Position numbers and translations under genes: made by a program. From Candidatus Eutrophomonas brisbanensis (GTDB taxonomy: Bacteria; Pseudomonadota; Gammaproteobacteria; Burkholderiales; Eutrophovitaceae), in contig JAYQIQ010000004.1 in NCBI GenBank assembly GCA_038141705.1, forward strand, positions 120,539 to 184,538: a stretch of 64,000 nucleotides of DNA. The letters run 5' to 3'. The notes beneath the pieces were generated by a model. That model had not been told where the DNA came from. It worked only from the letters and a program-made list of their open reading frames with translations, and ran no database searches. This document shows positions 8,301 through 55,241 of the stretch, piece by piece; position 1 is the stretch's first letter, and each line of letters begins with the position of its first letter.

Positions 8301-8812
8301 TCAAATCACTCAAAAACGGAAAAGAGCCAATTCTGAATCTTCAGCTGCAAGATAGTACTGACATCAACCTACACACACCGACACTTTTACCCAACCACTA
8401 TTGCCCCAATGTTCATCAACGTTTGATCATGTACAAACGCTTAGCTGGCGCTACTTCTTTTGATGAGTTGGAAAATATTCAGGAAGAAATAATAGATCGA
8501 TTCGGACCCATCCCGCCAGAAACAAAATCGCTAATTAATAATCACAGACTAAGAATACTAGGACAAGATCTTGGCGTCACGAAAATCGACTCGAATGGTA
8601 CAAAATCAACTATTCAGTTTCTATCAGAACCTAAAGTTGACCCCATGAACATCATAGAGTGCGTTCAACGAAGGGATGACGTTAGATTTTCCGGGCCAGA
8701 TCGTATTCTACTCACGAGTGATGAAGATTCAGTGGATCGCCGGTTCGCAGGCATATTAACCCTGCTCACAGAAATACAAGCTGGTGAAGCGTTAAACTAT
8801 CTCCCGAGTTAG
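5387..8812 (+). CDS. mfd: Transcription-repair coupling factor
   Basis: 1141 aa with superfamily 2 helicase motifs (GDVGFGKTEVALRAAF, DEEHRFGV), a CarD-like region and a TRCF C-terminal domain. Confidence 0.95.
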   Translation: MANSIAHPIKNSLRIASRSGGGFLIPKFVSESDSPVVLFVSEPSDAIKRFAEITFFNPSLRVRTLPDWETLPYDAFSPHQDLVSERLETLYHLTEEKVDLLIVPVSTALHKIAPKTYFSQNVFLLNVGEHLSQENFRDHLSNAGYEPVSQVVTPGEYSIRGSIIDVFPMGSILPYRIDLLDDEIDSIRTFDVDTQRSIYKINEIRVLPAREFPTNEDAITLFRSNYREMIDGDPTKSLIYREVSKGSFPSGIEYYLPLFFNDTGTIFNYIPGNAKLIYDHDALSAIQNFWNETESRYRLLRADSERPLLDPGFLFLREDQFFGQLKLFDRTELEFLDTSNEIFSKLPDISVNRRLKNPLENLKNFLEIHEGRCVLIADSPGRKETISELLGANNIPFTNADDWDKCINSTTRFCVTNGTIDTGFIYTPDKLAVITEGELYPQQTRGRGRNRPSTSPENVIRDLSEIRIGDPIVHLNHGIGRYKELSTMDLGEGASDFLCIEYAEGSVLYVPVGQLDLVSRYSGGPPELAPLHKLGTDKWDKAKRKAAEKIRDTAAELLGIYAQRAALPGRSHSLDRDMYEAFCEEFPFEETVDQQAAIAATIEDLQAPKPMDRLICGDVGFGKTEVALRAAFVAVSNNYQVAVLVPTTLLAEQHYQTFVDRFKDTPVRIAELSRFRSKLQIEETSNNLESGKIDIVIGTHKILSKDVRFKNLGLVIIDEEHRFGVRQKEALKALRTEVDILTLTATPIPRTLAMSMEGLRDLSVIATPPRRRLAIKTFVSPYSEGLVREAIIRELKRGGQIFYLYNEVDSIESAREKLLSIIPSATVRIAHGQMRERELENVMRDFYRGRFNILLCTTIIETGIDIPNANTIIIDRADKFGLAQLHQLRGRVGRSHHQAFAYLLTPRGVPLKGQAKKRLEAIQMMEELGSGFFLAMHDLEIRGAGEVLGDTQSGDLQEIGYQLYTDMLNRAVKSLKNGKEPILNLQLQDSTDINLHTPTLLPNHYCPNVHQRLIMYKRLAGATSFDELENIQEEIIDRFGPIPPETKSLINNHRLRILGQDLGVTKIDSNGTKSTIQFLSEPKVDPMNIIECVQRRDDVRFSGPDRILLTSDEDSVDRRFAGILTLLTEIQAGEALNYLPS

Positions 8813-9128
8813 TCCCAGCGATCATCCTTAATAAAAATATTACCCGCCTCCACTTTAACCGGAAACGCATGTATATCCTCCCAGGCGGGGGCGCAGTGAC
8901 CTTGCCGGTTTTAACTGAAAAACGAGCTCCGTGTCGTGGGCAGATAATCTCATCACCCTCTAGAGGACAGCCACTCAAAACCGCACCATCATGCGTACAG
9001 ATGTCCTCTACCGCATAAAAGTTTCCATCAATATGGTATGTGACTACTAATGTTCCATCGAGATTGACCTGGAGCCAACCACTAGAAACTACATCATCAA
9101 CTTTTCCGACTTCAATCCAATCAGACAT
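8809..9128 (-). pseudogene. Rieske [2Fe-2S] ferredoxin-like protein at the end of the suf locus; frameshifted near the C-terminus
   Basis: It carries the CTHDG...CPRHGARF Rieske motif. After ..KVTAPP the track ORF runs into non-homologous sequence. The alternative frame reads WEDIHAFPVKVEAGNIFIKDDRWD* (stop 8809-8811). The frames join if the G5 run at 8887-8891 were G6. Confidence 0.75.
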
Positions 9129-11486: not shown

Positions 11487-12785
11487 CTAAAAACTCGTGA
11501 GGGTACGAATATTTTCCTCAATCGATGGAAGGAGAGATTTAACTGGCAAATCATCCAGCACATCTCGTGCAAATGCATAATTAAGCAAATTTCGAGCTGT
11601 CCTATCATCGATACCGCGAGCCTTAAGATAGAAGAGCTCTTCGTCATTGACTTGACCAATAGTCGCCCCGTGCGCACATTTGACATCATCTGCAAAAATC
11701 TCAAGCTCTGGCTTTGCATCGATTGAAGCGCGATTTGAGAGAAGCAAACTGCGACTTTGTTGAGCAGCATCCGTGCCCTGTGCATCTTTAAAAACTTTTA
11801 TTTTTCCGTTGAATACAACCCGTGCTTGATCTGCCGCAATATTTTTATGTGTTTGGCGCGAGGAAGTATGGGCCTCAGCGTGGTAAAGGGTCGAGTGGGT
11901 ATCCGATACTCTGCCCTTATCACATAGCGCTAAGCCCTTCAGGTCCGCATGCGCCCCATTACCAGACAAATAAACATGGGGATTTTGACGCGACAATTTC
12001 GCCCCACAACTGATCGACCAATTTCTATATGTCCCAGATCGTTCAATATTTACAAATGAATTACTGATATAAAAGGAATCAAGATCTTCGCGTTGGAGCT
12101 GGACGTGATTTAGCCTCGCATTTTCTCTAACAAATAGCTCGGCAACATTGTTCGTAAAATAGCGATACCCTCCGATATTTAGGCTATCTTCAATAAGGGT
12201 CGCCTCTACCCCTTCCCCACAATCAAAAAGAATTCGAGGGCATGAAAATACATCCTTCTTCGTATTAACATTTAAAACTTGTATCACTCGCTTCGAGGCT
12301 GATTCGCCAGTCGCAGTAACCAAGATAATGTCTCGTGCACCTGATGTATTTAACGCCGAGAAACCATCTCCAAACTTGTCCTCTAAACTTCCAAGCAACC
12401 CTTTACCCAAACTAACTTGAATGCCGGTGGCGTCAGAGCTGGTGTTTGAGAGAATTGAAAACTCTTTGGAACTAAGTGTGCTTGAGTATTTCTCCGAAAA
12501 AATACCGTCGACGGTTACGACAAAGTCAGTAGCCTCAGGCAATCGAAAAGACTGCAAAATTTGTTCGTCGATTTGTTGGCTCTCACTAACCGATGATAGA
12601 TTCAATCCGTATAGGCTGCGCAAATCTGTATATCGCCAGGACTCATCGGTCGTTATAGGTAGAGCACCGGGAGTCAATTTACGTAATGCTTGATCTCTAA
12701 TAGTACGTAATATCGGCGCTTCAGATGAATGCCGATCGGTTTTTGAGAGCATTGAAGCTAAAAATTTATCCGCAATATCTCTCAT
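11487..12785 (-). CDS. sufD: Fe-S cluster assembly protein SufD
   Basis: 432 aa. The C-terminus has LEIFADDVKCAHGATIGQ and FYLKARGI, typical of SufD. It sits between sufC and sufS. Confidence 0.85.
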   Translation of the reverse strand: MRDIADKFLASMLSKTDRHSSEAPILRTIRDQALRKLTPGALPITTDESWRYTDLRSLYGLNLSSVSESQQIDEQILQSFRLPEATDFVVTVDGIFSEKYSSTLSSKEFSILSNTSSDATGIQVSLGKGLLGSLEDKFGDGFSALNTSGARDIILVTATGESASKRVIQVLNVNTKKDVFSCPRILFDCGEGVEATLIEDSLNIGGYRYFTNNVAELFVRENARLNHVQLQREDLDSFYISNSFVNIERSGTYRNWSISCGAKLSRQNPHVYLSGNGAHADLKGLALCDKGRVSDTHSTLYHAEAHTSSRQTHKNIAADQARVVFNGKIKVFKDAQGTDAAQQSRSLLLSNRASIDAKPELEIFADDVKCAHGATIGQVNDEELFYLKARGIDDRTARNLLNYAFARDVLDDLPVKSLLPSIEENIRTLTSF

Positions 12786-36266: not shown

Positions 36267-36906
36267 TCAATCGGTTATCAAATCTACCCCTTCGGGAGGT
36301 GTGAACGTAAACAACGCATTCGAATCGCTCAAATTACCCCTAGAAAACTTCGTAATTTCTATTACCGTTTTCTGCCCAAAGTGATCGAACAACTCCATTT
36401 CGGTCAAAACATCTTTTTTAAACCCGATGTTGATTCGGGCAAACAAAGTATTTTCCTCATAGGGCTTAATCGTTCACCCATTCCAGCCCTCGCCGTGTCT
36501 TTTGACTTTCCAACATAAAGAACCGCTCAATATCACTGGATCCAGCGAGCAATGCCGCAGGGGATGAACCGAGAGCCGAATCCAAATTGACTCGAGTGAC
36601 CTGCTCAAGATCCTTGTCATACACCCAAAGATATACTCCATCACCCACTAATAACTGTTCATACGGCGCTTTATAGACCCATCTAAATTTTCCTGGGCGC
36701 AGAAAACTGAAACTTCCTTCCGATTTTTGCAAAACCTCGCCGCTCTCAAGGAATACAGTCTGAACGAACTCAGCGTGCCCCGCGTTCGTATTACTAATAA
36801 ATGAGCGGAGCCGCTCGATCCCACCCGCATAAGATACCTCGAAGCTTGATGAAAGCGCCAAAGTTACCAACAAACAACCAACAATTTTTCTTATAAATGT
36901 ATACAT
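36267..36906 (-). pseudogene. lolA: Outer-membrane lipoprotein carrier LolA; frameshifted
   Basis: ORF 36466..36906 (signal peptide, GKFRWVYKAPYEQLLV) stops at ..LEWVND*. The alternative frame reads KPYEENTLFARINIGFKKDVLTEMELFDHFGQKTVIEITKFSRG..DLITD* (stop 36267-36269). The switch is near 36468. Confidence 0.85.
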
Positions 36907-41399: not shown

Positions 41400-43072
41400 C
41401 TAGGAATCCCTCCCGACTTCGCCCCGAAAAGTGCTAGTGATCGGGAAACGCCAATCTTTGCCGAACGCTCGTCGGGTAATCCTGACTCCTGGAGGGGCCT
41501 GACGTCGCTTGTATTCATTGATGTGAATTAAACGGACTATTCTTTCCACATCCGCCCTTGGATATCCTGCTTGGACAATTTCTTCGATGCTCCTATTTTG
41601 CTCAACATACTGCTCAACAACAGCATCGAGAGTGTCGTATGGAGGAAGCGAGTCCTGATCTAATTGATCTGGTCGCAGCTCAGCACTCGGAGGTCTTTCA
41701 ATAATACGATTCGGTATCACTTGAGAAAGACTATTCCTGTACTTACACAACCGATAAACCATCTGCTTACCTAAATCCTTGAGGACCGCAAAGCCCCCGC
41801 CATGTCGCCATACAACGTGGCATAACCAGTGCTCATCTCACTTTTATTTCCCGTCGTCAACACTAGAGAACCAAATTTATTAGACATACTCATCAGTAGC
41901 GTCCCTCGGATCCTAGATTGGAGATTTTCTTCTGTGGTATCGAACTCTCGACCAACAAAAACCGAAGAGAGGCCTGCAATAAATTCATCAAAAATAGGTT
42001 TTATAGCAATTTCCTCGTACGTGACATCGAGGATTTCAGCCATTTTCCTGGCATCCTCCAAACTAATGTTGGCAGTAAACTGAGATGGCATCATGACGGC
42101 AGTTAAGTTCTCAGCTCCCAAGGCATCCACGGCTACGGCAAGCGTTAAAGCAGAATCGACACCACCAGAAAGACCAATAATTGCGCCCTTGAAACCATTT
42201 TTTAATACGTAATCTCTCACCCCTTGAACTAAAGCCTCATATGCGGCCTTCTCCTCGGTTTCTGGGTACGCATGGCGCACCCCAATCACATCACCTCGGT
42301 CAATCTCAACGCAGTCCATTGACTGTGAAAATGCAGGTGACTGAAATCCCATATCTCCATTCGAGGTAACCGCGAAAGACGCACCATCAAATACAAGTTC
42401 ATCCTGTCCGCCAACCATATTGCAAAACACGATTGGCATATCCAGCGCCCTAGCCCTTCCAGAAACAAGATCCGTGCGAATCGCCTGCTTTGCGAGATGG
42501 AACGGTGATGCATTTAAAACGAGTAATACCGTCGCGCCAGCATCCTTTGCAGACCGCGCGGCCCGAACTAAAGATAAATCTCCAGCATTCTCGACAACAT
42601 CAATTTCCTCGGCTCGTCCTCCCCAAATGTCCTCACAAATATTGACACCAATACGCACACCATTCACAGAGAACACACATGCATCAAGTCCAGGATCGAA
42701 ATATCGATCCTCGTCAAAAACATGGTAATTTGGAAGCTCTTGTTTGAAGTATCGGCCGATGATTTTTCCATTTTGGATAATCGAGGCAGCGTTGTAGAGT
42801 CGATTATTTTCGCGATAGGGATGCCCAACAACCAGAGTTATATTCTCGGTCTTTGCCCGCAATGACTCTAGCTCTAAATCACACCCCTTCAAAAAGTCTT
42901 CGCGAAGCAACAAATCTTCCGGAGGATAGCCAGAGATGGCAAGCTCAGGAGTGACAACAATATCGGCACCATCAACTTTTGCCTTTTCTAGAGCATTTGA
43001 AATTTTCTCGCCATTCCCGGTCAAATCTCCTACAGTACAATTTAGCTGAGCGAGCAATATTTTTATCGGCAT
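41400..43072 (-). pseudogene. nadE: Glutamine-dependent NAD+ synthetase (CN-hydrolase + NAD synthase domains); frameshifted
   Basis: ORF 41771..43072 ends ..YATLYGDMAGALRSSRI*. The alternative frame gives GFAVLKDLGKQMVYRLCKYRN.. and continues into ORF 41400..41762. The frames join if the C5 run at 41794-41798 were C6. Confidence 0.9.
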
Positions 43073-44278: not shown

Positions 44279-44790
44279 GTGGTCTTTGGTTTCTACGATA
44301 ACTTAACGTCTCGTCAGCAGAGCATATACCGTCAAAGCGACGAAATTAAATATCTCAGGCTAGCAGAAACTTCTCAACTCACGGCGCTGGCTAACGAACT
44401 CGTGGAAACGCTGCCGACTGAGAATAAAAAGGCTGTAGAAAAAATCTGCCAAACAATCGTTGATACCATCAATAACCAATTCAATGCACCCCCACTAAAA
44501 TTACAAGTACTTGCGGTACGCCCATCAGCAGACTGGGGGAACTCCACGGCCTATACCTCCCAGAAGACGATGGTGAACTTGCAAAAATTCAGGTTTGGAT
44601 GCGGACAGCAAAAAATAAAAAAATCGTAGCTTTTAAAAGTTTTTTGCGGACTGTTCTCCACGAGCTGTGTCACCACTTGGACTACGAGCACTTCGGATTT
44701 CCGGCGACATTTCACACCGAAGGGTTTTACAGTAGAGAGTCGAGTTTATTTAAACAAATTTATATACCAAAAGAAAACGCCGGCGATTAG
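44279..44790 (+). pseudogene. Hypothetical HExxH-motif protein (putative metallopeptidase-like); frameshifted
   Basis: ORF 44279..44629 and ORF 44599..44790 (..LRTVLHELCHHLDYEHF..) lie in different frames. The alternative frame reads GELHGLYLPEDDGELAKIQVWMRTAKNKK. The frames join if the G5 run at 44535-44539 were G6. Confidence 0.5.
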
Positions 44791-44802
44791 CCGGCGTTTT
44801 TT
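44774..44802. terminator. Bidirectional rho-independent terminator between convergent genes
   Basis: AAAACGCCGGC-GATTA-GCCGGCGTTTTTT: a GC-rich 7-bp core stem extended by A/T pairs, with an A-run on one side and a T-run on the other. Confidence 0.7.
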
Positions 44803-44819
44803 AATCTTTACCTCGTTTG

Positions 44820-45353
44820 CTAGTTCGCCTCAGGCTTACAAAAAGTCTGCAAAGTTTCATCGAAACACCAGTGTGTATTAAACCCATTATTTCTTACAAC
44901 GCAATCGTATACATACTTCGACATTTCTTTGGTGAAATGGCAATTGCGATATTTATGCATCGTACGCTCTCTCTCAAACGTACCAACCACGTTCTCCTCA
45001 CCCATTCGGGAAGCTCTGGTCCACTCCTCCTGCTCCGGAGCCGCATCGGTCTTGGTTTCTGTCTCGTTTTGAGCGACGATTACAACCAGATCCTGATTTG
45101 CTGAATTCCGATCCACATCTTTCTGGCAGCTTTTCTCCACAGTCGTGTTGAAGCACCAAAGGGTACTGAACCCATTATTCTCTACAATACACTCATGGAC
45201 TTTTCGCCCCATTTCATTCGTCCACTCACACTGACTATACTGCGCAATGATTTGCTCCCTCCGAGCAGATCCGCCAGCAAACACGTCAACAGCGCTGACC
45301 GCAAAAGTGAGTAAAAAAACACTCGCCACCCCTAGCAACTTTTTTATTTTCAT
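44820..45353 (-). CDS. Secreted protein with a tandemly duplicated 4-Cys domain (unrecognised family)
   Basis: 177 aa with a signal peptide (MKIKKLLGVASVFLLTFAVSAVDVFA). The two repeats are QYSQCEWTNEMGRKVHECIVENNGFSTLWCFNTTVEKSC (45126-45242) and KYRNCHFTKEMSKYVYDCVVRNNGFNTHWCFDETLQTFC (44838-44954). Both have spacing C-x12-C-x11-C-x8-C. Confidence 0.5.
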   Translation of the reverse strand: MKIKKLLGVASVFLLTFAVSAVDVFAGGSARREQIIAQYSQCEWTNEMGRKVHECIVENNGFSTLWCFNTTVEKSCQKDVDRNSANQDLVVIVAQNETETKTDAAPEQEEWTRASRMGEENVVGTFERERTMHKYRNCHFTKEMSKYVYDCVVRNNGFNTHWCFDETLQTFCKPEAN

Positions 45354-45389
45354 AAGCTTTTTTCCACTCTCATAATTGACTTAAATCGG

Positions 45390-45797
45390 TTACTGACCAA
45401 ATACAAAACGAATCCGAAGATATCTTCTGCCAGTCAGATCTTTTGTTTCAACAATTTGCTCACCATCGTAGGACGCCTCAATCGTGTACCTACCCCCAAC
45501 CACATCCACGAAAAACAACGGACCCTTGGAGTCATCCTCGATCAAAACGTTCCCCGAAACATCAAGAACTCTCACTCGAACTCCTCTCAAAGGCGCCGCG
45601 GTCTTTTTGGAAACAAATACCAAGTGCATGGGAAACCTAGGGGCCATATCATCCAGTTCCTTCCGCTCGGCCTCCTCAACCCCCCCAGAAACATAACGAT
45701 TACCACCTTGCTTGAGTATTTCTGGAGCCGCCATCACAGGCACAGAAAACCACGCCAACCAACAAATCAACGCTATTCTTCTTAACTTGTAGAACAA
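45390..45797 (-). CDS. Hypothetical secreted protein (carboxypeptidase-regulatory-like beta-sandwich by eye)
   Basis: 135 aa with a signal peptide ending VMA-AP, then ..VSGGVEEAERKELD..MHLVFVSKK..VRVRVLDVSGNVLIEDDSKGPLFFVDVVGGRYTIEA. Confidence 0.4.
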   Translation of the reverse strand: MFYKLRRIALICWLAWFSVPVMAAPEILKQGGNRYVSGGVEEAERKELDDMAPRFPMHLVFVSKKTAAPLRGVRVRVLDVSGNVLIEDDSKGPLFFVDVVGGRYTIEASYDGEQIVETKDLTGRRYLRIRFVFGQ

Positions 45798-45838
45798 AAC
45801 TTTCTCCTAAAACACCAAACTCTTAGACCCGAATTATG

Positions 45839-47053
45839 TCAGGTATTCGAGTTCAATTTCGATTGTGTACCGGATTCTACGACTCGTTCAAAAACGTTTG
45901 CGTCACCAAATCCCCCAGCTTTCGTAATTAAGGTCAATTCACGACCACAGTACTCAAAACTTGAAACCGGAATGCCGGGCATCAAATTTCCGTGCAGGGC
46001 AATTACACTCGCCCCTGCTTCGCGAAGTATAGCGAGCGCGGTATCCCCACCGGTCGCAAACACCGCATCGACTCCAGATGCTCCAACTATTTTTAAAGCT
46101 GACTGAGCTAGCGCACTCGCAACAGCGCTAGAGCCCTTCTCCACCTCACCCTTCGAGGCAGCAAGCACCAGGGCTCGTTCGATAGCTAGATGTACCTCCG
46201 AATAAACCCCATTGGGCGCATAAACAACAGCGCCTGTAAATTTTTTGGAAAACTCGTCGATCTGTAAACTAGCACGCTCTGATCTAGAACCAACCACAAA
46301 CAAGAATCGATCAACCTTCTTCCGACTCCGCTCTACCGTCTGATTCTCACCTAGCAGTCTCGCCAGCTGTGATCCAACCCCAGATGAGCCTACCAAGATA
46401 TTAAGCTTTGGATGTTTAACAAAAAATTCTGCAGCTCTCTGTAAATCCGAATTGTTTTCCGAGTCAAAAATAAACGCCGTGCTTGACCTTGACTTGGGGG
46501 TCACTCCTTCTCCCGCTGGAATCAAAACCACGTGCTCGAAAATTGAATTTTCGAATATTTCCGTTAACAATTGCGACGGGGCTGGACTTAGAGCATCACG
46601 AACAAATTGTGTTTGGCCCAGTGGCACATTATCCACCAACACTTCACCACCTCGAACCGTTCGGCCTTGCTCTGGGAAAGCAGGCGCAAAACAGAGACTC
46701 GAAGCGGAAAAATACGATGCAGCAGCAGCGCTTTCCACCACAACATTCCCACGCATCGTGGAGTCTATTTTTTTAAAAATAAAACTAAAACTTCCAGAAT
46801 CGATTTGTCTGAGGCAGCTTTCCAACCTCGACACAGCGTCTGATGGAGATAGATGACGTGATTCGGTGTTTATCGCGAGAACCTCGGCGTCCTCGATATC
46901 GACCTTATCAGGAAATGCGTCTGGGTCGACGATGGCCTTCACCCGAAAACCGTGGTCACAAAAAGGTCCCGCAGCGTCCAGAGTCCCAGTCAGGTCATCA
47001 GCAATGATCAGGATCCTACGAATACCAGAGGCGATCTCGCTAACCGCCACCAC
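45839..47053 (-). CDS. Four-carbon acid-sugar kinase family protein (DUF1537; DtnK/DenK/OtnK type)
   Basis: 404 aa with the N-terminal [16 protein letters not shown] hallmark. It overlaps the upstream pdxA-family gene by 14 nt. Confidence 0.8.
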
Positions 47054-48023
47054 CAGCTACCATTTTTAGCGCATAAGAAATCGCAGCCTTCATATTTGTA
47101 TTGTTTGCTATCCCCTTCCAAGCAATATCAAAGGCCGTCCCATGATCGACTGATGTTCTATAAATCGGCAAACCCAGGCTCACATTCACGGTTTCATCAA
47201 AGGCAATTAACTTGGTCGGGATATGACCTTGATCATGATATTGAGCAACAACCAAATCAAATTCCCCCTTGAGGGCTCGATAAAACACCGTATCACCTGA
47301 AATAGGTCCAACGGCATCGATACCTTCAGCTCTCGCAAGCTCAATCGCCGGGGCAATACGATCTGACTCCTCGGTCCCAAACAAACCGCCCTCTCCACAA
47401 TGTGGGTTTAGACCCGCAACAGCGATACGTGGTTTTGAGACACCAATTTTTTTGAAGTGCTCATTTCCAATTCGGATTGTATCCAAGACACGTTGTGTAC
47501 TTGGGCGCTCAGCTGCGTTTTTGAGTGATGTATGAGTTGTCACATGAATCGCGCTAAGTTTTGGACCAGCCAAGAGCATGAATGAAGACTTGGCACCGGT
47601 TAGATGCGCGAGAAGCTCGGTATGCCCATCATATTTGTGTCCCGCCATGTGCATCGCCGCCTTATTCAAAGGCGCCGTCACTATCACGGATATATCACCA
47701 TCCAAATTCAACTGTACGGCTTTCTCAACATACCGGTAAGCTGCCTCACCACTAGCAGCGGTAACCTGTCCGTCCACAATATCCGACTCGCCAGTAGTTT
47801 CAACATATGCGACTGGCACCACTCCATTTTTTACATCTAGATTTTCCTCGAAGACTAACTTTGCGCCGAGTAAATCATTTGCCCTTTCTAGGCGCGGGAG
47901 ATTTCCGATAACCACTGAATTGCTGCGATCACGCTCAGACATCTCAAGAAGGGTCTTAACGATAATTTCTGGGCCTATCCCTGCAGGATCCCCCATCGTG
48001 ATGCCGATTCGTTTCGATCTCAA
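47040..48023 (-). CDS. pdxA2: PdxA-family NAD-dependent dehydrogenase (PdxA2-type 4-phospho-tetronate dehydrogenase, decarboxylating)
   Basis: 327 aa with [27 protein letters not shown] and [12 protein letters not shown] blocks. It is paired with a DUF1537 kinase. Confidence 0.8.
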
Positions 48024-48065
48024 CGTATTCTTCCTTTTTTTATTGATGAATTGAGGCGTGAACCA

Positions 48066-48993
48066 TTAAAACGGATTGTTCGCCGCCAGCGCCTCAAGTT
48101 TTTCCGATGAACATGCGATCCGAACCTCAGATCCCCTCGCTAGATCACCTCCGCACTTCTCGATAATCTCGGCAGCTTGCTCTACCAACTGAAGGATTTG
48201 TACGCTCACAACCAAATCTCGCATCTTCAAGCCCCACTCGAATATGACCTCCTTCCGCGATCACTCTTGGAATCAACGGCATGATATCCACATCGAGTCC
48301 GGATGCCATCCAGTTACAGCCCGGAGCCACCTTATCTAGTAAGTTTAAATACGCTGTCAGGCTGAAGTCCTCCGGCGGAAAACCGAAAGTGAATCCAGAG
48401 CTAAACATCAATCGATAGATCGGATCAGGAGTACTCTCCCTCCAATGTAAACTCGCTCCTAATCGAATAAACCCGGGTTCATAAATTGCATAGCTTGGGT
48501 GTATGCCGTACTGCCTTGCTATAGACAACCCATGCCTGACATCTGCTTCATGATTGAGGTAAACGTAACCCGGCCTATCCTCTTTTAGCTGGTCGTAGTG
48601 CGTGATGTTGCATGAGCCTGGGTCCAGAACAGTCCACTCCACGAGACCATCCTTCGCTAGTTCCTCGATGTGCGCATAACGATCGACAGCACTACTGCCC
48701 TCGGCGATTCGATTCATTCCGGGAGCAGGCACGGTCGGATACACAATCGCATCCACTTTAGATCGGATCTCAGTAATAATTTTTTTATAAGTTTCCGCAT
48801 CATCTTTTTGTTGGCCAGTGCTCTCGTCATACGCGTGAATGTGTACGATCGCCGCACCAGCTTTTACACAGTCGATCCCTTGACGCACGATCTCTTCAAC
48901 AGAAACTGGAATACCAGGCTGCTTTGTTCGCGTCCAAGGCCCGTTGAGCCCAACCTCTAACCATGTCTTTTGAGTTACGTCTATCATCATCAA
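48066..48993 (-). pseudogene. Beta-keto acid cleavage enzyme family (BKACE / DUF849); C-terminal frameshift
   Basis: Track ORF 48145..48993 (..AAIVHIHAYDE.., GGHIRVGLEDA) ends in unrelated sequence. The alternative frame reads LQLVEQAAEIIEKCGGDLARGSEVRIACSSEKLEALAANNPF* (stop 48066-48068). The switch is near 48194-48195. Confidence 0.8.
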
Positions 48994-49009
48994 CCTTTAA
49001 TTTACTTAT

Positions 49010-49708
49010 TTACTCAGAACCAACGATATCAACCTGCAGACCAGGAAATCCCTCCACGGTTGCAATAAGCCTATCGCCTGGATTTACTGCTCCAACCCCC
49101 GCTGGGGTCCCCGTAAAAATTAAGTCTCCTGGTTGAAGCGTATAAAAATTAGAGAGAATCGAAATAATCTCGGGTATCGACCAAATCATATCTTTTAGGT
49201 CGCCACGCTGACGGATCTCACCATTCAAGCTCAACGAAATGGCTCCCGCGTTTGGATGCTTTTCACCCGCACGCACCGGTTGAATCGAGCTGATGGGCGC
49301 AGACTGCTCGAAGGACTTGCCAAAATCCCAAGGTCGGCTCAAGCGCTTCGCATCCGCCTGAAGGTCCCGCCTCGTGAGATCGATTCCTACTGCATAACCA
49401 AAAACACATTCGAACGCATCTGCGACTTCGATCGATCGACCACCCTTCCCTAGGGCCACAACCAACTCGACCTCGTGATGCAAATCTTCGGTCGAGGGCG
49501 GATATATAACCCTCCCTCCCTCGGGCACGAGCGAGTCTAGAGACTTCAAAAAGAAAAATGGCGGTTCGCGATCGGGATCGTTGCCCATCTCCCGAGCATG
49601 CTCAGCATAATTACGGCCTACGCAGAATATTCGATGCGCGGGAAATACATCGCGCGACCCAACGACGGGCAGCACGGGTTTTGGAATTTGAGAAAAAACA
49701 AAGTTCAT
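49010..49708 (-). CDS. Fumarylacetoacetate hydrolase (FAH) family protein
   Basis: 232 aa with CVGRNYAEHAREMG, HHEVELVV and GDLIFTGTPAGVG blocks. Confidence 0.85.
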   Translation of the reverse strand: MNFVFSQIPKPVLPVVGSRDVFPAHRIFCVGRNYAEHAREMGNDPDREPPFFFLKSLDSLVPEGGRVIYPPSTEDLHHEVELVVALGKGGRSIEVADAFECVFGYAVGIDLTRRDLQADAKRLSRPWDFGKSFEQSAPISSIQPVRAGEKHPNAGAISLSLNGEIRQRGDLKDMIWSIPEIISILSNFYTLQPGDLIFTGTPAGVGAVNPGDRLIATVEGFPGLQVDIVGSE

Positions 49709-49761
49709 CAGCTATCGGTAACGAATGTGAAATTTATGTGCTGGATTGTGAACTGTAAATC

Positions 49762-49782
49762 AAAAAAGGCGTAATCGCCCTC
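49762..49782 (-). terminator. Weak candidate terminator downstream of the ferredoxin gene
   Basis: On the minus strand the sequence is AGGGCG-ATTA-CGCCTT followed by TTTT. The stem is short, so this is tentative. Confidence 0.3.
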
Positions 49783-49836
49783 CCACTAAAAACGTTGGCA
49801 TTATTGCATACGAGTGGTCGAACCTGACCAAAGAAA

Positions 49837-50166
49837 TTAGTCCAAGCCGAAATTATTTAGTCTTTTGACCCAAACATTACTTTTGGGTACCGCGCGACAT
49901 GTAAGTATGGCGCCGTCGTTACGCTCTTCCGTTGACAAAGCACTCGGGCTATAAACCATGAGATCGACTTCACCCGATAAAAGCTTGCATTTGCATTTTC
50001 CGCAATCGCCGCTCCGGCATTGATAGGCAAGCCGCATCCCGCGCCGCAAAATCGCCGTCAAGATGGTGTCGCCCGGACCCACTTCCACCGACATCACCTG
50101 ATCATCAATTTTTATTTCGTATACCAAAATTTTTTTGTATTGAAGAGTTATGTTCGAAGGTTCCAA
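49837..50166 (-). CDS. Plant-type [2Fe-2S] ferredoxin domain protein
   Basis: 109 aa with a TTG start. It carries C-x4-C-x2-C (CRSGDCGKCKC) plus the distal LTCRAV Cys. Confidence 0.75.
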   Translation of the reverse strand: MEPSNITLQYKKILVYEIKIDDQVMSVEVGPGDTILTAILRRGMRLAYQCRSGDCGKCKCKLLSGEVDLMVYSPSALSTEERNDGAILTCRAVPKSNVWVKRLNNFGLD

Positions 50167-50591
50167 TATAGATCACAAAAAGCACAATATCATGCGTTTT
50201 TTAAGGACCCTAAACTACTATATAAGCAAAATATTAAGCATTGGATTTAATCCTCACTTTATGGGCTCTAAAACTTAGCTTGACTAACCCCTCAGCCACA
50301 TATGAGCCCCTATGCATAACTTATTTTCATGTGCAGGAATAAGGACAACAAAATCGGCCTTAAATTGCAAAAAAAGTATTGCGAAGCACAACAAAAACTT
50401 CACAAAAATTAAGCGTTTTCAATCGCCTTACAAACCTAAATTGCTTGCAAAGCTTTAAGACCCCGTCTAAATTACCACTAGGTGTTCTGAAAGTTAGTAG
50501 ATGGTTCGGTATCTCGAGACCAATTAAGAAGTTTCTAGTATCAAATCTGAAGTAGCTCCGCAGAATTTCCAATATAAGTAGTTAACGGTTT

Positions 50592-50609
50592 ATTTATTCG
50601 CGAATAAAT
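50592..50609. promoter_or_regulatory. Perfect 18-bp palindrome (candidate operator) 31 nt upstream of the PQQ dehydrogenase start
   Basis: ATTTATTCGCGAATAAAT is self-complementary over 18 bp. It lies in the 473-bp divergent intergenic region, and the RBS GGGAGAGAG follows. Confidence 0.3.
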
Positions 50610-50639
50610 CAATTTTGTTTAATTTTTTGGGAGAGAGTT

Positions 50640-52403
50640 ATGACACGTTGGACAAGCGTAGCTGCCGTTAAGGCAATTTCCGCTGTCGCCTTTGTCGGAT
50701 TCGCTTCTCAAGCTATCTCAGCAGATGTTAGCTGGGATCGTTTGTTAAACGCGCACAAAGACGATAACAACTGGATGATGTATCACAAAGACTTCACAGG
50801 TCATCACCACAGTGGTCTTAACCAAATCAACAAGGGCAATGTAAAGAACCTAAAACTTGCATGGCAGCACACACCTGCTTCTAGCAAGCGAGGTATCCAG
50901 TCATTCCCATTAGCTGTTGATGGGGTTGTTTACTACACAAGTTCTTCAGGAGCGATTCACGCTGTTGACGGAACAAACGGTTCGCTCATCTGGAGCCACA
51001 CGGCTAAGATCGACGTTGAGCGTGCTGAAGGAACGTTCTACAACCCATACAACCGTGGTCTTGCAATTGGTCATGGCAACGTTTACATGGGAACAACTGA
51101 CGGTCGCTTAATCGCACTTGATGCGAAGAGCGGTAAGGTTGTATTTGACAACGAAATTATGTCAGTAGCCAAAGGTAACAAGGGCTTCACCGGCGCTCCA
51201 ATGATCGTGAAAGACATGGTTGTTTTAGGTGCAAACGGTGGTGAGCTTTCAGGCTGCTGCGGACCAATCTACGCAGTTGATGCAAAGAAAGGTACCGTTC
51301 GTTGGCAATTTGACACCATTGGTGGCGATCAGCGATCACGTGATTCTTGGGGCAATGACTCCTGGAAAATCGGTGGTGGCGGCGGTTGGATGACTGGGCA
51401 CTATGACGCAAAGCAAAACACCCTATGGTGGGGTACTGCAAACCCAGCTCCTGACTACGACTACATTGGTGAAGACTGGATGAACAACGGTCCACGTCCT
51501 GGCCTTAACCTCTACAGCTCTTCTGTAGTGGTTCTTGATGCAGATTCTGGTGAGCTTTCAGCTTACTTCCAGGAAATGCCTCATGATGCATGGGACTTTG
51601 ACTCAGCCGTTGGTGAGTTCTTAATGGTCGAAGGCGGCGGCAAGCGAAACATGGTTCACCCAAACAAGGGCGGTATCATTTTCGTTTACGATGCTGACTC
51701 TGTTGGCGGCGGTAACGAGCTAGCTGTAAACAACGCCTACATGATTGGCGAGACTTACAACTACATCAAAGGTGTAACAAAAGACGGTCGATTAGTTGGA
51801 CGACGTGAGCTTCCAGAAGGCAAGCACATGGACGTATGTCCTGCAATTGACGGTTCGATTTCTTGGAACACCGGCGCATACAATCCAAAGTCTGGCACAC
51901 ACTTCATGGTCACTCAGGAATTCTGTTTCGACATCGAAGTTGTTAACCCAGAGCGTCCAGATGATTTCTCTGGACAAGCTTACTTCGGCGCTTCATGGAC
52001 CTCAAAAGGACCTAAGCAGAAAGTTGACGGAACTCCAGTTGACGCTGCATACGGTACGCTTCAGGCTCGTGAGCCACTCTCAGGCAAGCTTAAGTGGAGA
52101 GTTGAGTACAAGTACCCAGTACTTGCTTCACTACTCTCAACTGGCGGCGGACTTGTGTTCGTTCCAGGCGCTGACGGCATGTTTGATGCACGTGACGCTG
52201 ACACCGGTAAGCTTCTATGGCAAAACAACAACGGCCTAGGTCACCACGGTGGTGTTATCACCTACATGGCTGGTGGCAAGCAGTACGTTGCTGTTGTTAC
52301 AGGTTGGGGTTCACACGTTTCTGGTAACTTCCCAGGATTGTTTGGTCACCCATTTACCTCTATGCCAACCGACGCTGGTAACTTGATGGTGTTCTCACTC
52401 TAA
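50640..52403 (+). CDS. Periplasmic PQQ-dependent alcohol/methanol dehydrogenase family protein (8-bladed propeller), atypical subtype
   Basis: 587 aa with a signal peptide (..FASQAISA-DV). It aligns by eye to MxaF/XoxF/ExaA along its length (DDNNWMMY, NQINKGNVKNLKLAW, GTANPAP, PHDAWDFD, CPAIDG, KLLWQ). Confidence 0.9.
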   Translation: MTRWTSVAAVKAISAVAFVGFASQAISADVSWDRLLNAHKDDNNWMMYHKDFTGHHHSGLNQINKGNVKNLKLAWQHTPASSKRGIQSFPLAVDGVVYYTSSSGAIHAVDGTNGSLIWSHTAKIDVERAEGTFYNPYNRGLAIGHGNVYMGTTDGRLIALDAKSGKVVFDNEIMSVAKGNKGFTGAPMIVKDMVVLGANGGELSGCCGPIYAVDAKKGTVRWQFDTIGGDQRSRDSWGNDSWKIGGGGGWMTGHYDAKQNTLWWGTANPAPDYDYIGEDWMNNGPRPGLNLYSSSVVVLDADSGELSAYFQEMPHDAWDFDSAVGEFLMVEGGGKRNMVHPNKGGIIFVYDADSVGGGNELAVNNAYMIGETYNYIKGVTKDGRLVGRRELPEGKHMDVCPAIDGSISWNTGAYNPKSGTHFMVTQEFCFDIEVVNPERPDDFSGQAYFGASWTSKGPKQKVDGTPVDAAYGTLQAREPLSGKLKWRVEYKYPVLASLLSTGGGLVFVPGADGMFDARDADTGKLLWQNNNGLGHHGGVITYMAGGKQYVAVVTGWGSHVSGNFPGLFGHPFTSMPTDAGNLMVFSL

Positions 52404-52443
52404 TTAGTGAAGCATTAACCATCGGTTAGTTGGTTAGTAAGTT

Positions 52444-52476
52444 AATTGGGCGGGATTTTCCCGCCCAATTTTTTTG
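52444..52476 (+). terminator. Rho-independent terminator after the PQQ dehydrogenase gene
   Basis: AATTGGGCGGG-ATTTT-CCCGCCCAATT followed by TTTTT. Confidence 0.7.
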
Positions 52477-52557
52477 TCTTCACTTATAATTAAAAAACTT
52501 TGACAGCACGAATAACTCAGAAGAAGTTACAAGCACCAGAAAGGGCAGGAGAATCAG

Positions 52558-52944
52558 ATGTATTTGTTTAGTTCACCAGCGAAGTTTACTCTTGGCTTTA
52601 CTACCACCATGTTTATCGCTTGCCTGGGCTTGTCCATCGCACATGCCGAAGAAGATGTAACAGAGATCGCAGCAGCGGAAATCAATGCCAAGTATCAGTC
52701 ACACAAAGAGAATTTTTCTGTGAAGCGATTATTCGCTTCCAGGTGCAGTTGGTGCCATCAGGGGTATGGACTCAAAGAGGCGGATGGACCAAGACTTTCG
52801 GGAATTGAAAAAACTAAGGAGCAAGTCGTCGAACAAATTATGTACGGTAAAAGCCCAATGCCTGGCTTTAGAAAGCAATTAAAAGAATGGCAGATAGAGG
52901 CACTTGCGGATTACATTAAAGCCCTACCGGATGTAGAGCTTTAA
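52558..52944 (+). CDS. Monoheme class I c-type cytochrome (candidate electron acceptor of the PQQ dehydrogenase, ExaB/XoxG-like role)
   Basis: 128 aa with a signal or anchor sequence, the heme motif CSWCH and a probable Met ligand in GKSPMPGF. Confidence 0.8.
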   Translation: MYLFSSPAKFTLGFTTTMFIACLGLSIAHAEEDVTEIAAAEINAKYQSHKENFSVKRLFASRCSWCHQGYGLKEADGPRLSGIEKTKEQVVEQIMYGKSPMPGFRKQLKEWQIEALADYIKALPDVEL

Positions 52945-52963
52945 ACGATAAATACGTTAGTTG

Positions 52964-52988
52964 AAAACGGCCCGAGTGGCCGTTTTTT
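52964..52988. terminator. Bidirectional rho-independent terminator
   Basis: AAAACGGCC-CGAGT-GGCCGTTTTTT between convergent genes. Confidence 0.7.
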
Positions 52989-53361
52989 ATTTCCGACTTA
53001 ATCGATATTTAATATCATCTCCGCCGTAGACGGCCTCGCCTTTAAGCCTTCCATCACCGATCAAAAACGCAAAACTCGAAAACTCATCCCCTACCTTACC
53101 CGTTGCGCTGAAATTGATCCGATTGCCGATTAATTTCAAGTACTCAAGCGGCATTTCGCTGTCACCAAATTTATCCAAATTTGTAAGACGCAAAGAACCT
53201 TGACCATCAGACCGGATGCTCAACCGAGCGGCGCCACTAGAGCCGCCGAGATACCAAGAGCCTTCCCAATCCCCGACGTACTTCGCAGGAACGTCAATTG
53301 CAAATGCATGAAATGCCAACAACAAACATACACTCATCAAAAATTTTTTAAAAAGTTTCAC
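52987..53361 (-). CDS. Hypothetical periplasmic protein
   Basis: 124 aa with a signal peptide (MKLFKKFLMSVCLLLAFHAFA). No recognisable family. Confidence 0.4.
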   Translation of the reverse strand: MKLFKKFLMSVCLLLAFHAFAIDVPAKYVGDWEGSWYLGGSSGAARLSIRSDGQGSLRLTNLDKFGDSEMPLEYLKLIGNRINFSATGKVGDEFSSFAFLIGDGRLKGEAVYGGDDIKYRLSRK

Positions 53362-54039: not shown

Positions 54040-55241
54040 TTACCAACCCGCTTCTTTCTCTGGCGAACTAGATACCTTATGGATTGCCAGGTCGGCCCCA
54101 ATAAACTCGTCCTCTTCGCTCATACGAATACCCACCATGCTCTTTAAGACACCATATACAATCGCCCCGCCTACGAGCGCCACGATAATTCCAGCGATCG
54201 TTCCAACCAACTGCGACATGAAGGAGACTCCACCTACACCTCCGAGCGACTCAAGACCGAAAATTCCAGCTGCAATCCCACCCCAAGCACCACACAAACC
54301 ATGCAGAGGCCATACACCCAAGACGTCGTCGATTTTCCAGCGATTCTGCGTGACAGTGAACATGTAGACAAAAAGACCACCAGCGATCGCCCCAGTGACT
54401 AAAGCCCCAAGCGGATGCATGATGTCTGATCCCGCGCAGACCGCAACCAAACCAGCAAGAGGGCCGTTGTGAACGAATCCAGGATCGTTACGGCCCACAA
54501 CTAAAGCGGCTAAGGTACCACCAATCATCGCCATTAAGGAATTCAGAGCAACAAGCCCGCTAATAGCTTCGATCGTTTGCGCCGACATCACGTTAAAACC
54601 AAACCAGCCAACTGTCAGCATCCAAGCACCGAGCGCTAGAAACGGAATACTGGATGGCGGATGCGAAGCGATTCCCCTTCCTTTCGGTAACGCCCTTTAC
54701 GAGCGCCAAGCAACATTACTGCCGATAAAGCAATCCAGCCGCCAACCCCATGAACAACAACCGATCCTGCAAAGTCTCGCATCGGCGAACCGAAAATTGC
54801 CTCAAGCCATTCCTGAAAACCAAAGTTTCCGTTCCAGATCATTCCCTCGAAAAATGGGTAAAGAACGCCCACAATAATGGCGCTCGCAAATAGCTGGGGA
54901 TAAAATTTGGCGCGCTCTGCTATACCACCCGAGATAATTGCCGGAATCGCTGCAGCGAACGTTAACAAGAAGAAAAACTTAACGAGACCGTACCCACCGT
55001 TCTCGGCAAGCACATTCGCACCCACCATAAATCCCGTTCCGTAAGCAACAATGTATCCAACAAAGAAATATGCAATAGTTGAAATAGAAAAATCACAAAG
55101 GATTTTAACGAGGGCGTTCACCTGGTTCTTCTTACGAACCGTTCCCACTTCAAGGAAGGCGAAACCTCCGTGCATCGCGAGCACCATGATCGCGCCGAGT
55201 AAAATAAATAGAACGTCAGACGACGAATTTACCGCATCCAT
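54040..55241 (-). pseudogene. amtB: Ammonium transporter (Amt family); frameshifted mid-gene
   Basis: ORF 54636..55241 is the N-terminal half and ORF 54040..54621 is the C-terminal half (..TVGWFGFN..). The alternative frame reads GIASHPPSSIPFLALGAWMLTVGWFGFN. The frames join if the C4 run at 54674-54677 were C5. Confidence 0.9.

Follow-up and report, generated by a model that had tools for sequence, protein, structure and literature searches.

Do the enzymes encoded beside a periplasmic quinoprotein in a streamlined genome of the Burkholderiales form one pathway, and where did so unusual a set of genes come from? The locus that raises these questions lies between about 44.7 and 53.4 kb of a 64,000-nucleotide stretch of Candidatus Eutrophomonas brisbanensis (GenBank assembly GCA_038141705.1, contig JAYQIQ010000004.1, positions 120,539 to 184,538), which as a whole is called the window here. 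A pyrroloquinoline quinone (PQQ) dehydrogenase and a c-type cytochrome on the plus strand are divergent from a minus-strand string encoding a [2Fe-2S] ferredoxin, an FAH-family hydrolase, a BKACE/DUF849 enzyme, a PdxA-family dehydrogenase, a DUF1537 kinase, and two secreted proteins (Table 1). A first-pass annotation made from the sequence had grouped these nine open reading frames (ORFs) into a self-contained module bounded by terminators; its positions match ours, and Pfam and NCBIfam agree with it on every family where one exists, both secreted proteins being without a family. Placed among its relatives, the cluster instead looks like a cut-down form of a larger MarR-controlled operon. Our preferred account, to which we give a probability of about one half, is that a periplasmic quinoprotein unit stands beside a trimmed aromatic operon whose retained block would handle aliphatic carbonyl acids.

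Survey of related loci

Relatives were collected with three anchors. With the kinase, seven homologue contexts were gathered and genomes were scanned, one for each species, the window proteins serving as tblastn queries for the scoring; homologue look-ups with the PQQ dehydrogenase added four further contexts; and a metagenome scan with BKACE added 80 further loci. Counts refer to 71 nonduplicate loci with an orthologous BKACE, and denominators are the loci that reach far enough. FAH is directly upstream of BKACE in 53 of 53 loci, PdxA is downstream of BKACE in 58 of 59, the kinase is present in 38 of 39, and a PQQ dehydrogenase lies no more than 10 kb from the cluster in 14 of 14. Across this genome neighborhood survey, the gene combination singled out by the first-pass annotation is a conserved feature of the Burkholderiales and not a product of chance. 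The concern raised there, that the neighborhood might be conserved in no relative, was looked at and does not hold, as the order FAH-BKACE-PdxA-kinase is kept.

Kinase homologues fall into a close group at 87 to 97% identity and a broad group at 36 to 43%, and below about 36% (Alphaproteobacteria, Halomonadaceae, Firmicutes, and others) the PdxA/kinase pair alone persists. The nearest outgroup of that pair is found in Halomonas, in an acid-sugar locus with an enolase-superfamily dehydratase, a short-chain dehydrogenase/reductase (SDR), a TRAP transporter, and GntR. A TRAP transporter in common with those acid-sugar loci was considered and rejected, the DctP proteins being 26% identical. BKACE orthologues of at least about 56% identity always occur with FAH and PdxA. 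A sister BKACE clade on high-GC metagenome contigs (L148 to L171), 52 to 60% identical, occurs without FAH, PdxA, or kinase, and its neighbors are heterogeneous: urate degradation genes, an MFS transporter, DUF520, an AraC-TPR regulator, malate synthase, and a sulfite oxidase-like protein.

Two departures from the pattern concern the catalytic core. A marine contig of the small architecture (OJFL01000298.1, locus L123) encodes no DUF1537 kinase at 11921-12078, the gene for the 135-amino-acid (135-aa) secreted protein standing about 150 nucleotides (nt) after PdxA. Because this lineage lost the kinase and kept everything else, an acid-sugar route that begins with the kinase cannot be the indispensable core of the system. 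In L008, L009, and L019, the His-x-His metal ligands of BKACE (at about 8012-8875) are replaced by S-M-Q, the sole exception among 83 distinct sequences. Spacing within the block is tight, with FAH and BKACE overlapping by 4 nt in L008 and PdxA and the kinase overlapping by 14 nt in the window.

Large and reduced operons

The window-type architecture, seen in 12 loci, has the PQQ dehydrogenase on one side and ferredoxin, FAH, BKACE, PdxA, kinase, the 135-aa protein, and a Cys-rich protein on the other. A large architecture accounts for 24 of the 36 loci that could be classified, and gentisate 1,2-dioxygenase (GDO) is encoded in 23 of those 24. Its upstream part consists of the PQQ dehydrogenase and cytochrome, then arfB, in some loci CorA, and MarR. 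The operon itself runs from a BenC-like reductase through an SDR, a PaaA-like di-iron protein, GDO, an unknown protein, FAH, BKACE, and PdxA to the kinase; at its end, behind an OpuAC-type protein that is found only sometimes, stand an alpha-only ADP-forming acyl coenzyme A (acyl-CoA) synthetase and a MaiA-type glutathione S-transferase (GST), and the 135-aa and Cys-rich proteins often come next.

The GDO of the large operon scores 546 bits against the NCBIfam equivalog TIGR02272 (cutoff, 442), and its maleylpyruvate/maleylacetoacetate isomerase scores 287 bits against TIGR01262 (cutoff, 171), with a MaiA-type isomerase present in 16 of 26 loci reaching far enough downstream. Since both enzymes lie above equivalog cutoffs and the FAH is nearest to fumarylpyruvate hydrolases, the large operon appears to be built around gentisate ring fission. 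Searches of the 64-kb window for a gentisate 1,2-dioxygenase and for a maleylpyruvate isomerase of the GST/MaiA type returned no match.

One locus, L091, joins the outer flank of the window (125-aa protein, Nudix, AmtB, FlK) to the large operon, which makes deletion in the lineage of the window the economical reading. Judged from these sequence comparisons, the window cluster arose by deletion from a larger operon under MarR control. The ancestral operon would have had about 12 genes: an aromatic-acid-to-gentisate section (BenC-like reductase, SDR, PaaA-like di-iron protein, the unknown protein, and acyl-CoA synthetase alpha), the ring fission enzymes (GDO, GST-type isomerase, and fumarylpyruvate hydrolase), and BKACE, PdxA2, and the DUF1537 kinase. 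One deletion would have begun midway through the reductase gene and reached as far as the gene preceding FAH; another would have removed the CoA synthetase and GST genes. The lineage, whose genome measures about 1.7 Mb, would be left with FAH, BKACE, PdxA2, the kinase, the two secreted proteins, and a stub the size of a ferredoxin. The reduced architecture is common to lineages with kinases about 42% identical.

The ferredoxin bears on this origin directly. Over its whole length it aligns with the Fer2 domain of the reductases, with 36 to 41% identity to their residues 1 to 92 and all four Cys kept. Because it matches residues 1 to 92 and ends at the domain boundary, the protein is best read as what remains of the BenC-like reductase, its N-terminal domain. 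The [2Fe-2S] domain named in the first-pass annotation is confirmed, and what changes is its origin, which would be a remnant of the operon's reductase.

Additional genes accompany the block in some lineages. Between BKACE and PdxA, some large-operon lineages carry an extra gene (1350-2528 in L091, with a gap at this place in L112 and L118), which in L091 matches "E22 family MetX-like putative esterase" at 482 bits against a cutoff of 450. A lone OpuAC-type binding protein, without permease or ATPase, is encoded directly after the kinase in L005 (11203-12078), L015, L016, L018, L101, L107, L115, L116, and L129; these are a minority of lineages from both architectures, and the survey count is 6 of 26 loci.

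Enzymes kept on the minus strand

The FAH-family protein is closest to 4maq, a "putative fumarylpyruvate hydrolase" (292 bits; E, 4e-86), and to 6j5y (251 bits; E, 1e-73), and JGI labels members of the cluster FAH group as fumarylpyruvate hydrolase. Its similarity to 4maq marks it as a predicted enzyme of the gentisate pathway type. FAHD1 and acylpyruvases of the YcgM type are also among its close relatives.

For BKACE, the family profile stops at position 233 of 274 solely because of a frameshift, and the repaired protein, like that of L001, aligns over its full length. HIH, YEPG, and HIRVGLED are conserved and align with the catalytic set of Kce (2y7d), in which we take HxH plus Glu to be the zinc ligands and the Glu of YE.G to be catalytic, counting the Arg and Asp of HxRxGxED with them. 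An enzyme like cis-epoxysuccinate hydrolase was considered, since 5zmu scores nearly as high as the Kce-like 3c6c; this assignment was rejected because the Kce residues are kept and the hydrolase replacements are absent. The enzyme also fits no characterized activity among those tested (Kce, 3-oxoadipate, 3,5-dioxohexanoate, and dehydrocarnitine), with scores of 94 versus 382, 66 versus 430, and 64 versus 350 bits. The OpuAC-type protein in L005, L015, L016, and L018 suggested a carnitine or quaternary amine pathway. This idea was rejected because the protein occurs in 6 of 26 loci and the carnitine-type BKACE of Halomonas is 29% identical to that of the window; the OpuAC protein itself has weak matches to choline-binding proteins and is unrelated to the transporter beside the PQQ dehydrogenase of Paracraurococcus.

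The PdxA-family protein resembles Salmonella PdxA2 (2hi1, 300 bits), 4jqp (302 bits), and D-threonate-4-phosphate dehydrogenase (6e85, 284 bits) far more closely than Escherichia coli PdxA (1ps6, 178 bits), and a housekeeping PdxA was rejected on this ground. It passes the generic model TIGR00557 (about 355 to 356 bits versus 290) and misses the D-threonate 4-phosphate dehydrogenase model NF002891 (331 versus 583). Three motifs, HV[TS]TH, NPH[CS]GE, and [YF]HDQGH, are present in all 65 to 68 distinct sequences covered, and their His residues are presumably the divalent metal ligands of the E. coli PdxA structure. Identity across lineages is 68 to 78%.

Both kinase domains, SBD_N (PF07005, 139 bits) and NBD_C (PF17042, 58 bits), score above their gathering thresholds, and matches to solved kinase structures are weak. 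ADDLTG, GGDT, and TKAGGFG are invariant in a 31-sequence alignment and are found in 51 to 55 of about 56 distinct cluster kinases; we take them for the DUF1537 family motifs ADDxTG, GGDT, and KxGGFG, the last two belonging to the nucleotide-binding domain. Against the characterized groups, the kinase falls outside D-threonate kinase (DtnK; 175 versus 450 bits), 3-oxo-tetronate kinase (OtnK; 95 versus 350), and 3-oxo-isoapionate kinase (15 versus 700).

Selection and assembly errors

As assembled, the BKACE gene is broken by a frameshift: near 48195 it has one C more than its counterparts in L001 and L010, and its last 42 codons are out of frame. Within the 21 kb common to the window and L001, five genes are frameshifted when judged against the intact L001 genes (Table 1). 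As five genes are shifted over this distance, essential nadE and lolA included, and as the ratio of nonsynonymous to synonymous substitution (dN/dS) for BKACE is 0.02 to 0.05, an assembly indel is more likely than a pseudogene, and the BKACE frameshift is probably an assembly error. The five cases suggest about one indel error per 4 kb of assembly, a rate to be kept in mind wherever ORFs are read in the rest of the window. Gaps of 36 to 93 nt within the minus-strand string, which had been taken as compatible with cotranscription, hold only if the BKACE frameshift is read through.

Against two close relatives, dN/dS ranges from 0.02 to 0.32 over all genes, indicating purifying selection throughout. 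Values are 0.02 to 0.05 for BKACE, 0.03 to 0.06 for PdxA, 0.13 to 0.15 for FAH, 0.21 to 0.23 for the kinase, and 0.24 to 0.32 for the ferredoxin; among the secreted proteins, they are 0.08 to 0.09 (177 aa), 0.14 to 0.18 (135 aa), and 0.24 to 0.28 (124 aa). By these ratios, a stable architecture, and catalytic motifs that almost all sequences keep intact, the retained minus-strand genes are predicted to encode intact, functional enzymes. In two relatives, BKACE is called as two pieces (L090, 2710-3615, a locus also without gentisate dioxygenase) or is uncalled (L007, region 7956-8966), which could reflect assembly artifacts or true decay in those lineages.

A separate two-gene unit

On the plus strand, the PQQ dehydrogenase is nearest to qhEDH, PedH, and MxaF, at about 216 bits to PedH. 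Its WDFDS aligns with WDFDG of PedH (6zcv), versus WDYAG of MxaF, and the extra Asp occurs in 112 of 114 homologues. An additional Asp two residues past the catalytic Asp is a marker of lanthanide-dependent PQQ enzymes (PMC11996626), and the window enzyme is probably of this kind by its sequence. The canonical vicinal Cys-Cys (..CCD..NRG) is replaced by GTFYNPYNRG; a Cys-Cys is found instead past the metal-binding Glu, in GGELSGCCGP. The features of the dehydrogenase (residues at about 128 to 136, 203 to 211, 287 to 292, and 318 to 324) hold in 107 to 112 of the 114 homologues, which are 54 to 87% identical and include some from Acidobacteriia and Acetobacteraceae.

The cytochrome gene follows the dehydrogenase gene in every context examined, those outside the Burkholderiales included, and its product is the likely electron acceptor of the dehydrogenase. 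No other genes of the region are as well conserved as these two, at 85 to 87% identity compared to 56 to 79% for flanking genes. The 473 bp at 50167-50639 had been described as noncoding, and no ORF of at least 80 aa is found there, but the last 190 nt or so are conserved and the region is hence no neutral spacer. The window, L001, and L010 hardly differ over about 190 nt before the dehydrogenase start but diverge in the remaining spacer; in distant L002, both TTGCAA-17-TAAATT and the palindrome recur. The segment at 50445-50639 is a candidate promoter with an operator or leader. Neither spacer nor leader had an Rfam match to a riboswitch or known RNA (fold z, 0), and no remnants of arfB or MarR were found in the 473-bp spacer.

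With a promoter region and a hairpin to themselves, the dehydrogenase and cytochrome genes form a unit of two. In Paracraurococcus and on one other contig from outside the Burkholderiales, the pair is present and the cluster is not, and within the order arfB, CorA, and MarR stand between the pair and the operon. Because the pair can occur alone, its adjacency to the cluster may be inherited and not functional. That adjacency is fully conserved within the order, where the two may or may not be linked in function.

Hairpins, boundaries, and secreted proteins

Genes around the cluster are housekeeping genes (mfd, suf, mutS, ccm, serS, ftsK, nadE, and amtB), and the local GC content is 45.8%. Both outer hairpins of the first-pass annotation are real: they fold better than shuffled sequence, and each lies between convergent genes, the left one between the frameshifted plus-strand 169-aa gene (ending at about 44784) and the 177-aa gene. 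The idea that they delimit a module fared less well. The strongest hairpin of the region (52444-52470) is internal to it, and past the right terminator, at 52988, the conserved unit continues into the gene for a 124-aa secreted protein. Wherever the PQQ dehydrogenase and cytochrome were seen in the Burkholderiales, this gene was with them, and it is absent from both contexts outside the order; homologues with 33 to 92% identity occupy the same position in L001 to L005, L010, L090, L091, L098, L101, L107, L119, and L121 to L124.

An equivalent of the internal hairpin (GGGCGGG..CCCGCCC followed by a T-run) is present in 6 of 6 Burkholderiales relatives that were folded (L001, L010, L002, L005, L090, and L091), among which the surrounding spacer diverges. 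The two loci from outside the Burkholderiales also have a hairpin between the dehydrogenase and cytochrome genes, but without a T-run. Candidate roles are a terminator, an attenuator, or an mRNA-stabilizing element, and as a partial terminator or stabilizer it could set the ratio of dehydrogenase to cytochrome. The candidate terminator proposed downstream of the ferredoxin gene (49762-49782) exists and is weak, as had been said; standing at the deletion junction, it may act as a weak terminator.

Homologues of the 177-aa secreted protein, for which Pfam, NCBIfam, and a further profile search gave no family, are encoded downstream of the cluster in 21 of 26 loci reaching far enough and have a single repeat in large-operon lineages. 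Its predicted structure model (predicted local distance difference test [pLDDT] score, 39) was unusable as a guide to function. The 135-aa protein has a homologue in 20 of 26 loci, with the motifs YVSGG and TKDLTGRRYL conserved. Its single-sequence structure model (pLDDT, 62) matches prealbumin-like sandwiches, and the protein is probably a transthyretin/CarboxypepD_reg-like beta-sandwich; this fold is generic, and no function was gained from it.

Table 1. Features of the cluster and its surroundings, in window coordinates
Feature	Position	Strand	Evidence or remark
Frameshifted genes	lolA 36270-36906; nadE 41400-43072; 169-aa gene 44279-44784; BKACE 48066-48993; amtB 54040-55241		Judged against L001
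Bidirectional intrinsic terminator hairpin	44774-44800	Both	11-bp stem, 7 GC pairs, then T-run; -19.2 kcal/mol, z -4.1
177-aa secreted protein, two repeats of about 40 residues with four Cys each	44820-45353	-	ORF with signal peptide-like N terminus
135-aa secreted protein	45390-45797	-	Subthreshold CarboxypepD_reg match, E 0.013
DUF1537 (four-carbon acid-sugar kinase family) protein	45839-47053	-	SBD_N + NBD_C; Burkholderiales-specific subfamily
PdxA2-type NAD-dependent beta-hydroxy acid dehydrogenase (decarboxylating)	47040-48023	-	PdxA, 339 bits; overlaps kinase start by 14 nt
BKACE/DUF849 enzyme, 306 aa after removal of 1-nt insertion near 48195	48066-48993	-	BKACE (PF05853), 167 bits
FAH-family hydrolase, fumarylpyruvate hydrolase type	49010-49708	-	FAA_hydrolase; directly upstream of BKACE
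Weak hairpin with U-run	49762-49782	-	Downstream of ferredoxin gene, at deletion junction; -10 kcal/mol, z -1.75; 10 of 200 shuffles fold equally well
Stand-alone plant-type [2Fe-2S] ferredoxin (Fer2), 109 aa	49837-50166	-	Best matches, MmoC/BenC N termini
Conserved candidate promoter/leader of PQQ dehydrogenase gene	50445-50639	+	TTGCAA (50445-50450), 17 nt, TAAATT (50468-50473)
18-nt perfect palindrome ATTTATTCGCGAATAAAT	50592-50609	+	In PQQ dehydrogenase leader
Periplasmic PQQ-dependent alcohol dehydrogenase, distinct clade	50640-52403	+	390 bits versus TIGR03075 cutoff of 480
Strong hairpin with T-run	52444-52470	+	12-bp GC-rich stem; -21.2 kcal/mol, z -5.5; between PQQ dehydrogenase and cytochrome c
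128-aa secreted monoheme c-type cytochrome	52558-52944	+	Cytochrome_CBB3, c550/c551-like; CSWCH
Bidirectional terminator hairpin	52964-52988	Both	Between cytochrome c (+) and 124-aa gene (-); -16.3 kcal/mol, z -3.7
124-aa secreted protein, no family, convergent to cytochrome c	52987-53361	-	Outside the module as first annotated

Possible functions and alternatives

In the account that we prefer, alcohol oxidation in the periplasm would be the task of the PQQ dehydrogenase, the small cytochrome c, and the convergent 124-aa periplasmic protein. Within the retained block, FAH would hydrolyze an acylpyruvate (a 2,4-diketo acid) to pyruvate and an acid, and BKACE would move the acyl group of a beta-keto acid to CoA using acetyl-CoA, releasing acetoacetate. 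The kinase and PdxA2 would phosphorylate a short hydroxy acid of the C4 type and decarboxylate it oxidatively to a ketose phosphate, such as dihydroxyacetone phosphate (DHAP). The hydroxy acid could come from FAH, or from BKACE as a CoA ester, in parallel to the conversion of glyceryl-CoA to glycerate and its use by glycerate kinase in the oxidative deoxyribose pathway. Alternatively, PdxA2 might supply the beta-keto acid to BKACE.

Several observations weigh against this account. The window offers neither a substrate nor a transporter or regulator by which the chemistry could be pinned down. The products of gentisate breakdown, fumarate and pyruvate, are not substrates of BKACE, the kinase, or PdxA2, and the account gives this trio no reason to be inside a gentisate operon. 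With no GDO or isomerase near, the fumarylpyruvate-type FAH has no evident substrate in the window, and the stub ferredoxin is without an obvious partner among the kept enzymes. Loss of the kinase in L123 and of His-x-His in the L008 lineage means that the block is not used identically everywhere. The sister BKACE clade was tried as a guide to function and dropped, its members being solitary and their mixed neighbors uninformative. Each functional step, moreover, is read from family membership and gene context.

A more specific proposal is that FAH, BKACE, and PdxA2, usually with the DUF1537 kinase, form a single undescribed pathway, in which PdxA2 would act as the C3 dehydrogenase of a phosphorylated (deoxy)hydroxy acid, BKACE would capture the beta-keto product, and a lanthanide-type PQQ dehydrogenase of a new clade would supply the substrate from the periplasm; we consider it possible but would sooner bet against it. 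The first-pass annotation had favored periplasmic oxidation of a polyol or aldose feeding an acid-sugar route. Conservation, the adjoining dehydrogenase at 14 of 14 loci, and the precedent of the deoxyribose pathway (PMC6365646) speak for the general scheme, but nothing points to a polyol or aldose, and that reading, partly supported, is among several that are possible, another of which has better support. In a sharper form, which we judge unlikely, a polyol, aldose, or deoxy sugar would be oxidized in the periplasm by the dehydrogenase and cytochrome, and the acid would be imported, phosphorylated by the kinase, and oxidized at C3 by PdxA2, to be decarboxylated to DHAP or, in the case of 2-deoxy acids, cleaved by BKACE with acetyl-CoA to give acyl-CoA and acetoacetate, a phosphorylated analogue of the oxidative deoxyribonate pathway. 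PdxA2 forms a beta-keto acid as an enzyme-bound intermediate, which would suit this scheme, as would a BKACE with the complete Kce-type catalytic set and a PQQ dehydrogenase that stays within 10 kb of the cluster despite differing outer flanks. The deoxyribose pathway, too, has a like logic of periplasmic dehydrogenase with cytochrome c, C3 dehydrogenase, BKACE, and kinase. Yet the dehydrogenase/cytochrome pair is found without the cluster outside the Burkholderiales, has arfB, CorA, and MarR intervening where both are present, and has a promoter region and a hairpin to itself. The quinoprotein is an alcohol dehydrogenase by type (qhEDH, PedH, MxaF) and not of the glucose, sorbose, or polyol type, operon partners in most lineages are aromatic pathway enzymes, and the window is without a lactonase, transporter, or SDR, the kinase being missing altogether in L123.

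It is also conceivable, though we think it quite unlikely, that there is no shared pathway and that inherited synteny holds together enzymes that each act alone. PdxA2, with or without the kinase, would then salvage 4-hydroxy-L-threonine or 4-phospho-tetronates for pyridoxal 5'-phosphate (PLP) supply or metabolite repair, FAH would be a general acylpyruvase or oxaloacetate decarboxylase, and BKACE would turn over acetoacetate or beta-keto acids. DUF1537/PdxA2 pairs are indeed reported, in the passage of PMC10971088 that cites Thiaville et al. 2016, to recycle 4-hydroxy-L-threonine into the PLP pathway. The score of PdxA above the generic equivalog cutoff (about 355 versus 290) agrees with such a role, as do the acylpyruvases FAHD1 and YcgM among the close FAH relatives and a kinase that can be lost and is 42% identical to that of L002, compared to 78% for PdxA. 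Against independence, gene order and tight spacing or overlap are kept although kinases are only 36 to 40% identical and outer flanks are unrelated, which is more than drift usually leaves, and BKACE orthologues of at least about 56% identity are never found away from FAH and PdxA, the solitary clade being the sister group. A last view, that the minus-strand genes are a decaying, nonfunctional remnant of the aromatic operon, could appeal to the BKACE frameshift, the reductase cut to 109 aa, the lost GDO and GST, and the split or uncalled BKACE of L090 and L007. It is already close to refuted by the dN/dS values (0.02 to 0.05 for BKACE, 0.03 to 0.06 for PdxA, 0.13 to 0.15 for FAH, and 0.21 to 0.32 for kinase and ferredoxin), by intact catalytic motifs in a reduced architecture that is stable to about 42% kinase identity, and by frameshifts in essential nadE and lolA that point to assembly error.

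Comparison with described systems

Zhang and colleagues reportedly described, in 2016, the DtnK/DenK and PdxA2 routes for D-threonate and D-erythronate, which combine a DUF1537 kinase with a decarboxylating 4-phospho-tetronate dehydrogenase. The window resembles them in a DUF1537 kinase with intact motifs that adjoins, and is translationally coupled to, a PdxA2-type dehydrogenase. It differs in that its kinase is far below the DtnK and OtnK cutoffs, no transporter or regulator accompanies the pair, and the pair is embedded with BKACE and FAH; in relatives, it is mostly inside a gentisate-type operon, and one lineage dispenses with the kinase. That the combination matches none of the described tetronate routes, as the first-pass annotation had put it, stands. 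Family scans of the module ORFs agree with it that no transporter, regulator, LtnD, OtnI, or OtnC is present, and among the ORFs of 44.7 to 53.4 kb they gave no 2-oxo-tetronate isomerase or class II aldolase-type decarboxylase.

Gentisate operons, such as nagIKL and mhb, encode gentisate 1,2-dioxygenase, a GST-type maleylpyruvate isomerase, and fumarylpyruvate hydrolase. The likeness lies in an FAH of the putative fumarylpyruvate hydrolase type, which keeps company with GDO in nearly all large-type relatives, whereas the window is without GDO or isomerase. To our knowledge, BKACE, PdxA2, the DUF1537 kinase, the PaaA-like di-iron protein, and the alpha-only acyl-CoA synthetase are part of no described gentisate operon.

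In the oxidative deoxyribose/deoxyribonate pathway of Pseudomonas simiae and Paraburkholderia, a periplasmic dehydrogenase and cytochrome c feed a cytoplasmic BKACE step that produces glyceryl-CoA and acetoacetate, followed by a kinase acting on the released acid (PMC6365646). The two systems are alike at the family level in having a periplasmic dehydrogenase with cytochrome c, a dehydrogenase that makes a beta-keto acid, BKACE, and a kinase. The enzymes themselves are a molybdenum-containing iorAB-like dehydrogenase, an SDR, and glycerate kinase in that pathway, compared to a PQQ enzyme, PdxA2, and DUF1537 in the window, where there is also no lactonase or MFS transporter. With lanthanide PQQ dehydrogenases of the PedH/ExaF type, the window enzyme shares the eight-bladed propeller of the methanol/ethanol family, WDFD, and a small c-type cytochrome encoded beside it, but its score to PedH is low, the canonical Cys-Cys is absent, and PGDN is changed to PGLN.

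Full-text searches, whose coverage is incomplete, gave no paper joining DUF1537 or PdxA2 with BKACE, nor gentisate with BKACE. DUF1537 and DUF849 appeared together in only one review, which treats them separately, and the main text of the NetSyn paper on BKACE mentions neither PdxA nor threonate. The block is real, conserved, and undescribed. What is new is the conserved FAH-BKACE-PdxA2(-kinase) arrangement, its place within an aromatic operon, and its persistence in genomes that have been streamlined; the families and the logic of the kinase/PdxA2 pair were known.

The locus also holds a lesson for annotation. Read from the window alone, it leads to a polyol or acid-sugar route, and read with its relatives, it leads to an operon for aromatic acids. 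Streamlining can reduce an operon of about 12 genes to four enzymes and a three-domain reductase to a free-standing ferredoxin. If the retained enzymes do act in one pathway, BKACE would use acetyl-CoA to pre-empt decarboxylation of the beta-keto product, the DUF1537/PdxA2 pair would have a new role, and BKACE would have a new substrate. Burkholderiales of soil and fresh water, as well as streamlined marine ones, would widely have such a system, and its large version would tie the aromatic gentisate route to an aliphatic branch. The strong selection that maintains these enzymes in marine Burkholderiales streamlined to about 1.7 Mb, beside a PQQ dehydrogenase that is highly conserved and probably dependent on lanthanides, would then have an explanation.

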